A stretch of DNA of 14,944 nucleotides. It comes from a virus (lineage: Duplodnaviria > Heunggongvirae > Uroviricota > Caudoviricetes). Shown here piece after piece: positions 3,731 to 4,457 of this stretch. Position 1 is the first letter of the stretch; every line of letters starts with the position of its first letter. The translations under genes were made by a program, and so were the position numbers. The notes below the pieces were generated by a model, which made no database searches, had not been told where the DNA came from, and saw nothing but the letters and a program-made list of their open reading frames with translations. The stretch lies in IMG/VR virus record IMGVR_UViG_2703718779_000017; one strand, written 5' to 3'.

Positions 3731-3947
3731 GGCTACCTCATCTGGTGCCGAACCTTCCTCCGGATATAATCTGTGGTTCCCAATCGACAGAACCAGAGGA
3801 GGTTCGACATGTATTTTTTGAAAAGCCTTTATCAGGCTCATGTATTAAATGTTGCAGCAACAAACCGCTGGTGTAACAGCCCCGAAATGCTCCCGGATTA
3901 CAGAGCCTGGCTGCGCGCCGAAACATACCTTCGTCTCGACATATTGA

Positions 3948-4457
3948 TTAGCGAACTTCAAAAAGAGACTGCATCCATTCATAACCTTCAGGGTATCGAT
4001 GCTGTTCGCATTCTGGTATCGCGCCATAGTGCTCTCTCAATAATTGAAGTGCGTCATCTCTCTTTTTCTGAACTGATTTTCTTGCTTCAACCAGCTCTGG
4101 AATCAGCGAATATCCCACCGGAAGTGATCCAATACCCACCTCATGTTGACGAGCAGTTACAAGATGTGCCATACAACCAGCGTGCTGGATTGACTCCCTG
4201 CTCAGAGGCTGAATGGGATCACTCTCTGCTGAAGAAATACCAAGATTTGTATAATCCTCAATAAGCCCGGCACACGCTTCTGCATCAGCCAGCTTTATTC
4301 TGGTTTCCTTGCGCTGTTCTCTGGCTGACAAACGCCAGAGCAGCGCATTAGCTTTATGTATCAACCACTCTGCCAGCTCCACATCAGATAAACCGCCACG
4401 CCAGATGTGCGGACTGTTTTCGTAAACGCTCAGTGTCAATTTTTTGTCATTACTCAT
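3948..4457 (-). CDS. Hypothetical phage protein (169 aa) between the YdaT-like and O-like genes
   Basis: ATG at 4457 is 13 bp after the YdaT-like stop. Codon position 1 is purine-rich on the minus strand in a sampled stretch (13/20, against 7/20 for the overlapping plus frame). No family recognised. Confidence 0.5.
   Translation of the reverse strand: MSNDKKLTLSVYENSPHIWRGGLSDVELAEWLIHKANALLWRLSAREQRKETRIKLADAEACAGLIEDYTNLGISSAESDPIQPLSRESIQHAGCMAHLVTARQHEVGIGSLPVGYSLIPELVEARKSVQKKRDDALQLLREHYGAIPECEQHRYPEGYEWMQSLFEVR

Follow-up and report, generated by a model that had tools for sequence, protein, structure and literature searches.

A conserved convergent gene pair of lambdoid prophages that probably encodes proteins on both strands of a shared 317-bp segment

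We analysed a stretch of 14,944 nucleotides of viral DNA (IMG/VR record IMGVR_UViG_2703718779_000017, Caudoviricetes; hereafter the window), which is part of a lambdoid prophage, and describe therein two convergent genes sharing a long segment of DNA. The plus-strand gene, here called P (3809-4264, 152 codons including the stop), encodes a 151-amino-acid (aa) phage-associated protein of the ECs1072 family, and the minus-strand gene, here called M (3948-4457), is a 169-aa open reading frame (ORF) assigned to phrog_8304. The two genes converge 3'-to-3' and share 317 bp (3948-4264, both strands), in which P codons 47-152 face M codons 65-170, so that the overlap covers the 3' two-thirds of both genes, i.e. 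~105 codons each. Our data suggest, with a probability of roughly 80%, that P and M are a genuine dual-coding convergent gene pair, with P driven by its own promoter and M lying in the early operon. Together they form a mobile two-gene cassette. With 317 nt the overlap is well over 90 nt long, and each partner has a plausible start and ribosome binding site, as sought in an antisense gene pair. The initial annotation, made from the window sequence, had pointed to a strong Shine-Dalgarno (SD) sequence and a plus-strand ATG at 3809 in a 217-bp gap of the replication operon, opening a 152-codon ORF to 4264 antisense to the 169-aa gene; these coordinates hold, the spacer between SD sequence and ATG being 6 nt. 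It had considered this long ORF to be probably an antisense shadow, and the gap to mark possibly a short peptide or the start of an antisense transcript.

P is practically certain to be a genuine full-length conserved protein gene. It matches the NCBIfam model NF033230 (ECs1072 family phage-associated protein) with 105.7 bits (E 2.1e-30) at a curated cutoff of 70 bits, residues 4-145 aligning to positions 3-141 of 142, which places it within the family, and the identical protein (WP_000273724.1; ECs_5703 in the Sakai strain) is the coding sequence (CDS) annotated here by RefSeq under the ECs1072-family name. Word-indexed and profile searches revealed 45 clusters of P homologues at 90% identity, distributed among Escherichia, Salmonella, Klebsiella, Enterobacter, Serratia, Raoultella and Yokenella. 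All ~30 loci for which DNA was retrieved carry an intact P of 151-159 aa, down to 29-36% identity with the window protein, including a Salmonella lineage without any M (loci L006/L007). The family score, the RefSeq CDS and the intactness in ~30 loci argue against the plus-strand ORF being a shadow, and what begins in the gap is a full-length conserved 151-aa protein gene and not only a short peptide. The SD sequence AGAGGAGG (3795-3802, plus strand) is separated from the ATG by TTCGAC (3803-3808), and the arrangement RRGGAGG-YTC-NNN-ATG/GTG is kept in every homologous P locus; in the window as a whole, GGAGG followed at 4-9 nt by ATG occurs six times compared to 2.07 expected, with six or more occurrences in 3 of 200 shuffles. 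The part of P outside the overlap (3809-3947, 46 codons) reads as a coding region, since the third codon position varies most (p-distances of.28,.20 and.50 at positions 1, 2 and 3) and the ratio of non-synonymous to synonymous differences per site (pN/pS) is 0.36; the pN/pS values for the overlap and the phantom frames given below derive from an OLGenie-type site classification with bootstrapping over codons. An AlphaFold2 model of P, although built from eight sequences only, is all-helical and predicted with confidence including the overlapped part (mean predicted local distance difference test score, pLDDT, 89.5; predicted template modelling score 0.86). Foldseek searches with this model returned no neighbour with E < 1 in the PDB or BFVD (best E 1.2 and 2.4), and a full-text literature search for ECs1072 returned only a microarray table.

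The genomic contexts of P homologues vary: they are found between cro or cII and the replication genes, beside the gene of a small terminase subunit, 3' of a cI-like repressor and, in Salmonella, in an Int/Cox/ExoVIII region. The window is 99.8-100% identical to prophage Sp4 of E. coli O157:H7 Sakai, to CP-933M of EDL933 and to prophages of O26, O121 and O103 strains (over compared stretches of 871 and 801 nt), and among 5426 complete E. coli genomes 464 carry the cassette, with O157, O26, O121, O103 and O45 strains making up many of them. The diversity of P/M loci was obtained via exact-protein look-ups and IMG/VR; genome-contig scans with the P alignment and with the M alignment gave no confirmed locus, tblastn of the window's P against deposited phages gave no match, and blastn of the region against deposited phages matched the flanking genes only.

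The 169-aa minus-strand ORF is also borne out as a real gene, as the initial annotation had taken it to be. M matches phrog_8304, a PHROG with unassigned function, over its full length (residues 1-169 on profile positions 1-169 of 169; 398.9 bits, E 3.9e-120), and it is without RefSeq annotation. Scanning 1.84 billion representatives by HMMER with an eight-sequence M alignment yielded 22 clusters, 19 of them with E < 1e-10, mostly of 146-163 aa and aligned over positions 4 to ~145. An alignment of 20 M sequences reaching down to 27% identity revealed motifs conserved outside as well as inside the overlap, namely SPHIWAGGLEG..LA.WL.GKANAIL in the non-overlapping N-terminus and Y..LG.S...SDPI.PLS.EAIQFD and P.GYS.LPDL.E antisense to P. 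In the part of M outside the overlap, pN/pS is 0.50 (0.41-0.60). The ATG at 4457 lies 13 nt after the ydaT stop codon, and M homologues bear a strong SD sequence of their own (CAGGAGGATATATG; also AGGAGGATATATG). A longer M starting with GTG at 4508 (186 aa) was considered and rejected, all homologues starting at the ATG at 4457. All 13 divergent M loci inspected carry the P ORF on the opposite strand, in full length in 12 of them; in the remaining one (L095) only the 3' 118 codons of the P ORF lay inside the stretch scanned. As judged from these comparisons and those within the overlap, M is very probably coding through the overlap.

Within the dual-coding segment codon position 1 of one gene faces position 1 of the other and position 3 of each gene faces position 2 of its partner, and the number of sites synonymous in both genes is ~0. 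The overlap measures 257-323 nt, with a constant frame relation, in 28 loci, and the position of the M stop codon is conserved. The purine bias at codon position 1, which had been noted in one sampled stretch as favouring the minus frame, is reproducible in the overlap (0.55 compared to 0.46 for the plus frame). Scoring codon usage in both frames over the overlap, as suggested along with the initial annotation, resulted in log-odds of 0.137 and 0.144 per codon for the two frames, well above the other four frames (-0.27 to -0.78), but because these two scores are equal the composition of a single sequence cannot separate the frames, and the purine bias cannot decide between them. Since conservation of one strand is always mirrored to some extent on the other, we chose tests in which such mirroring would not suffice.

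Across 2612 overlap codons of 14 lineages the partner frame is free of stops, compared to 73 stops among 1737 codons of this frame where the genes do not overlap (Fisher 3e-30); the latter control is drawn from the non-overlapping halves of P and M themselves, read in the same antisense frame, and is thus free of assumptions on codon-pair bias. Shuffling synonymous codons, which keeps the protein and the codon usage, predicts 0.9-4.4 M-frame stops per lineage if P is shuffled and 1.8-4.8 P-frame stops if M is shuffled. The M-less Salmonella lineage behaves as expected from chance, its antisense frame containing 7 stops with 6.6 expected, and 3 with 3.5 expected in the shuffle test. In the overlap, pN/pS (95% confidence interval) is 0.72 (0.61-0.85) for the P frame and 0.83 (0.71-0.96) for the M frame, whereas it rises to 1.34 (1.10-1.70) for the phantom M frame in the P-only region and to 1.27 (1.04-1.57) for the phantom P frame in the M-only region. 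In an independent set of divergent loci (L087-L106), the overlap yielded values of 0.64 (P frame) and 0.79 (M frame), with 1.32 for the phantom frame, and a set of closely related E. coli sequences gave 0.39 and 0.53 for P and M, respectively. Sites synonymous for P change at a rate of.73 outside the overlap and of.43 within it, and for sites synonymous only for M the rate rises from.19 to.40. At equal P identity, the M frame reaches an amino acid identity of 0.39 within the overlap and the phantom frame one of 0.20-0.23. Taking open frames, pN/pS ratios, rates and identities together, comparison of the sequences shows that both frames are under selection as coding sequence; the pattern of synonymous-site conservation for the minus frame only, which would be in line with a plus-strand shadow, was not observed, both frames being constrained.

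The most serious competing explanation, which we nevertheless regard as improbable, assumes only P to be functional, the minus strand encoding at most a short N-terminal product of ~65-85 aa while the remainder is read-through mirroring the conservation of P. This explanation is in agreement with PGAP annotating P alone and with several observations that weigh against dual coding. The AlphaFold2 model of M, obtained at the same alignment depth as that of P, has a mean pLDDT of 55, with residues 73-169, i.e. the overlapped part, mostly below 50 and only a helix at residues 25-72 of moderate confidence. Low-confidence prediction is common for overprinted sequence, and the poor model would fit an overprinted, possibly disordered extension, but it would also fit a non-functional part. 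M is frameshifted in L008/L009, two independent assemblies, after ~codon 48 at a run of five A (L008 3394-3645), and in L050/L095 after ~codon 27 (L050 ~3090-3150), and the antisense frame downstream of both frameshifts is still free of stops; these frameshifts could represent recent pseudogenisation, assembly errors or recoding. In L004/L005 M is 20 codons shorter. As M is frameshifted or shortened in these lineages, it is apparently dispensable in some contexts, and P can persist when M is lost or trimmed. The distant relative in Shigella phage SfIV described below has just a convergent 73-aa ORF with a 29-nt overlap. Moreover, pN/pS in both frames of the overlap is only moderately below 1, the pairwise statistics are phylogenetically non-independent and deep comparisons are near saturation, and we infer from operon position only that M is read in the early operon of cro-like, ydaT-like, M, O-like and DnaC-like genes. 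Concerning function, no defence, toxin or DNA-binding signature was found for P or M in Pfam, PADLOC, Foldseek and PDB searches: Pfam and PADLOC gave no match for either protein, PADLOC also none for two divergent M and one divergent P homologues, and a PDB sequence search with the M profile gave no match. What decides against P being the only functional gene is that mirror conservation cannot keep a frame free of stops, as it is in all 2612 overlap codons of the 14 lineages, where P-preserving shuffles predict 0.9-4.4 stops per lineage, and that the M frame has a pN/pS of 0.79-0.83 with a confidence interval below 1 compared to ~1.3 for phantom frames, an identity about twice that of the phantom frame (0.39 vs 0.20) and a conserved stop position.

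The opposite explanation, according to which only M is real and P is a shadow, its ribosome binding site and ATG indicating nothing more than a short peptide or an antisense RNA without coding function, could draw on the slight purine preference for the minus frame, on PHROGs holding the minus-strand and not the plus-strand protein, and on the existence of an upstream transcription start site (TSS), showing that antisense RNA is made. We consider it already refuted by the comparative data, as P scores above the curated family cutoff, is intact in every locus including one without M, is coding-like in its 46 non-overlapping codons, has a high-confidence predicted fold over its full length and keeps its frame free of stops in the overlap, where shuffled M codons would create 1.8-4.8 per lineage. 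A constraint acting in the overlap at the level of RNA or DNA, such as an mRNA-mRNA duplex, RNase III sites or binding sites, instead of translation of a second frame, is very improbable. In its favour, pairing of convergent transcripts is unavoidable, and the overlap shows less variation at P-synonymous sites (.43 vs.73) and contains an internal TSS at 4182; yet the constraint is frame-specific, as stops are avoided in one antisense frame and the other two hold 5 and 12 (counted over the window's whole P gene), M-synonymous sites have a higher rate of change than those that are non-synonymous in P as well as in M (pNS.43 vs pNN.35), and Rfam returned no family match, the single hit being a chance snoRNA match at E 0.78.

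The 217-bp gap contains a sigma-70 promoter belonging to P itself, from which transcription runs against the early/replication operon. The promoter (3742-3770, plus strand) consists of the -35-like hexamer CTGGTG (3742-3747), the 17-nt spacer CCGAACCTTCCTCCGGA and the -10 hexamer TATAAT (3765-3770). A block of promoter, leader and SD sequence, spanning ~65-85 nt before the ATG, is kept in 21 lineages even where the proteins are only ~30% identical; its consensus consists of TTGGTG, CCGAACCTTCCTYCGG and a -10 element in the form of TATAAT, TATATC, GATAAT or TGnTAGCCT, followed in these 21 lineages by a spacer varying by up to 18 nt and by RRGRACC-GAAGGAGGTTCGAC-ATG. From the promoter a start near 3777 is predicted, and the Cappable-seq data of EDL933 (PMC10469882, supplementary files 7 and 8) contain a gene-assigned TSS (gTSS) at 1257177(-) for EDL933_RS32100 (1256691-1257146, minus strand), detected in six of eight conditions with a strength of 19-52. 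This site maps to window position 3778, where both sequences are identical, 8 nt 3' of the -10 hexamer and 31 nt before the ATG, resulting in a 31-nt leader. The antisense transcript start that the initial annotation had considered in the gap therefore exists, and it is opposed to the early operon feeding the replication genes. Since this TSS is active in the EDL933 lysogen, P is transcribed in the lysogen; for scale, in the same lysogen the repressor promoter has a strength of 360-650 and the cro-like early promoter (pR) of 0-22 (PMC10469882). A scan for consensus promoters at 3600-4600 returned no site despite the mapped TSS, because the -35 element is poor for the rule of the scan.

Two further plus-strand starts are contained in the same data set (PMC10469882). 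An internal TSS within P at 4182 (iTSS 1256773(-)) was detected in 8/8 conditions with a strength of 8-69, and RNA starting there would be antisense to the 5' half of M and, unless terminated, to the 3' end of ydaT, a geometry similar to that of the lambda oop RNA. A distal TSS at 3645 (asTSS 1257310(-), six conditions) is antisense to the O-like gene over the initial 86 nt of the latter and is the sole gTSS of gene 32100 in stationary M9. No TSS in the sense of M is listed inside the cassette (EDL933 Cappable-seq, PMC10469882). No terminator-like structure was found on the plus strand at 3600-4600, and none downstream of P.

The leader starting at 3778 is unstructured (-6.4 kcal/mol, z +0.5). 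A conserved inverted repeat (3749-3808, plus strand) with the 5' arm CCGAACCTTCCTCCGG (3749-3764) and the 3' arm CCAGAGGAGGTTCGAC (3793-3808) causes the region 3735-3830 to fold with -27.6 kcal/mol (z -2.5) and the SD sequence being paired. Translational control of the main P mRNA by this hairpin was rejected, as the 5' arm falls within the spacer of the promoter, 5' of the TSS at 3778, and divergent lineages have uncompensated mismatches; among the lineages compared no compensatory changes were found, the uncompensated mismatches occurring in L008 and L006. With the 5' arm absent from the main transcript, the SD sequence would be sequestered only in transcripts starting upstream of 3749, and the hairpin may matter for those from the 3645 start, which would carry the anti-SD arm. 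The promoter spacer is strongly conserved in unrelated contexts, which suggests that it might be the target of a host factor or of a regulator that the cassette encodes. In the Salmonella loci with P and without M (L006, 3463-3560; L007, 628-1174), the next gene is an unrelated 151-aa gene, which is preceded by a second copy of the promoter/leader/SD block (TGGTGCCGAACATCCTGACGGTGCTAGCCTGC...CAGAACCTAAGGAGGTTCGACATG). The leader block behaves as a portable expression module.

These data are compatible with a model, which we put forward tentatively, according to which P would be made in the lysogen while the early promoter is repressed and M would be made once the early operon fires after induction or infection. 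M, for which no separate TSS is listed, is assigned to the early lytic stage because it lies 13 nt behind ydaT in an early operon that is nearly silent in lysogens. Polymerases on the two strands would collide and the mRNAs would be complementary over at least 317 nt; owing to this convergent transcription and complementarity, the outputs of P and M would be mutually antagonistic, expression of one depressing the other. Transcription of P, from 3778 and from the internal start at 4182, would in addition run counter to any leakage of early transcription towards the replication genes (O-like and DnaC-like). A more speculative extension, which we consider unlikely in its entirety, would have the cassette act as a self-contained portable two-state switch with a P-on lysogenic and an M-on lytic state, mutually exclusive through collision and mRNA duplex formation, in which M would be an antidote or counter-regulator to P, e.g. 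to an exclusion or replication-blocking factor, the C-terminal 100 residues of M would be overprinted on the antisense strand of P and SfIV-like phages would represent the ancestral arrangement.

Concerning the origin of the long overlap, a segment of Shigella phage SfIV (NC_022749.1, 27691-28318; L107 2501-3128) encodes in gp36 a distant P-like protein (hhalign probability 58%, E 1e-4, 135 columns). The segment also contains an unannotated convergent ORF of 73 aa (L107 2907-3128, minus strand), whose similarity to M is limited to the N-terminal motif (probability 45%, E 2e-4) and which shares just 29 nt with gp36. This short overlap tentatively suggests that the long overlap arose by M extending over the antisense strand of P, and SfIV may keep the ancestral short-overlap state.

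Bacteria and phages offer few long antisense overlaps of protein-coding genes, and these are disputed, as the majority of candidates are young and supported solely by expression data. P and M supply evidence that is usually missing, i.e. joint conservation down to ~30% identity in at least seven genera of Enterobacterales, internal controls in the form of the non-overlapping halves and the M-less lineage, and a mapped TSS for P. Antisense overlapping genes described in earlier reports include pop/ompA, asa, ano and the three genes of PMC9927249 in E. coli O157:H7 and olg1/olg2 in P. aeruginosa (PMC7103648, PMC6294744, PMC5960689, PMC9927249, PMC8850804). P/M resembles these in having two coding frames on opposite strands far beyond overlaps of a few bases, with one partner dropped by annotation pipelines. 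The genes from enterohaemorrhagic E. coli and Pseudomonas are reportedly evolutionarily young, with support chiefly from RNA-seq, Ribo-seq and phenotypes. They are mostly embedded in an older annotated gene, whereas P and M overlap partially 3'-to-3', each having a conserved non-overlapping part, are co-conserved to ~30% identity across several genera and move as a cassette between phage contexts. The evidence for P/M, unlike that for the known cases, is comparative together with a mapped TSS and is not Ribo-seq.

The arrangement is also reminiscent of other phage systems. Lambda oop is a 77-nt terminated non-coding RNA, its promoter pO lying between cII and O and directed against the early rightward operon. 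The P promoter likewise lies between a cII-like and an O-like gene and fires against the early operon, yielding RNA antisense to one or more upstream early genes. In contrast to the terminated, non-coding oop, the P transcript bears a strong ribosome binding site and a conserved 151-codon ORF with no terminator found, so that it does not qualify as an oop-like small RNA, and the cassette also occurs outside the cII-O slot. In the convergent-promoter switches pR-pL of phages 186 and P2 and sar-ant of P22, the overlap is short or involves a non-coding RNA, and proteins are not encoded on the same base pairs. P/M shares with them face-to-face units in or beside the immunity/early region; interference between the transcription units and antisense pairing, which set the two outputs of those switches against each other, are only deduced for P/M. 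Lambda Rz/Rz1 and the phiX174 overlaps represent same-strand overprinting in a compact phage genome, in which two proteins are obtained per stretch and one partner is probably younger and poorly structured, as for P/M; P/M differs in being antisense, with position 1 opposite position 1 and almost no site synonymous in both genes.

P as an annotated hypothetical family and M as a PHROG are already known, each alone, and we know of no report that they form a conserved dual-coding pair. New is the finding of an old pair co-conserved across genera, with a 3'-to-3' partial overlap, in a mobile cassette with portable promoter and leader. None of the annotations inspected carries both genes; other gene callers take one or the other. 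As RefSeq/PGAP keeps only P and PHROGs only M, each resource lacks a conserved family, and P/M exposes a systematic blind spot of annotation. In Shiga-toxin-era prophages the cassette adjoins the region controlling immunity and replication; this position and the transcription of P in lysogens suggest a possible role in lysogeny control, replication control or superinfection exclusion.

The early operon surrounding the cassette is encoded on the minus strand. It comprises a cro-like (YdaS-type) gene (4880-5152), a YdaT/cII-like gene with PF06254 and phrog_163 matches (4471-4896) directly upstream of M at a 13-nt gap, M as the third gene, an O-like replication initiator or DnaD-like helicase loader downstream of M (2615-3730; phrog_1701, E 2e-148; same bounds as the RefSeq CDS) and a DnaC-like loader (1868-2608). 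The gap between the start of the O-like gene (ATG 3730) and the end of M (3948) spans 3731-3947, i.e. 217 bp. A longer O-like ORF of 408 aa starting at the ATG at 3841 (extension 3731-3841, minus strand) would run through the P promoter and the P start; it was rejected and the start at 3730 favoured by family profiles and RefSeq, because PHROG matches begin at residue 38 of the 408-aa ORF and RefSeq agrees. Inside the O-like gene, five exact copies of AAGCCCCTT are arranged with 11-bp spacing in groups of three and two (3260-3290 and 3527-3546). Allowing one mismatch, seven copies are found compared to 3.6 expected, with all five exact ones within the two phased groups; the copies are iteron-like and may mark the prophage origin.

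In the immunity region, a second antisense unit is represented by a plus-strand TSS at 4937 (EDL933 1256018(-), 8/8 conditions), which opposes the cro-like gene from a site barely within the 3' end of that gene, at a distance of 41 nt from the start of ydaT. A type II toxin-antitoxin pair of the RelB/RelE-ParE type (5690-6168, plus strand; RefSeq names) lies directly downstream of the cI-like repressor. The gTSS of this repressor (5261, plus strand; EDL933 1255694, strength 360-650, 8/8 conditions) coincides with the A of its ATG, and the repressor mRNA appears to be leaderless.

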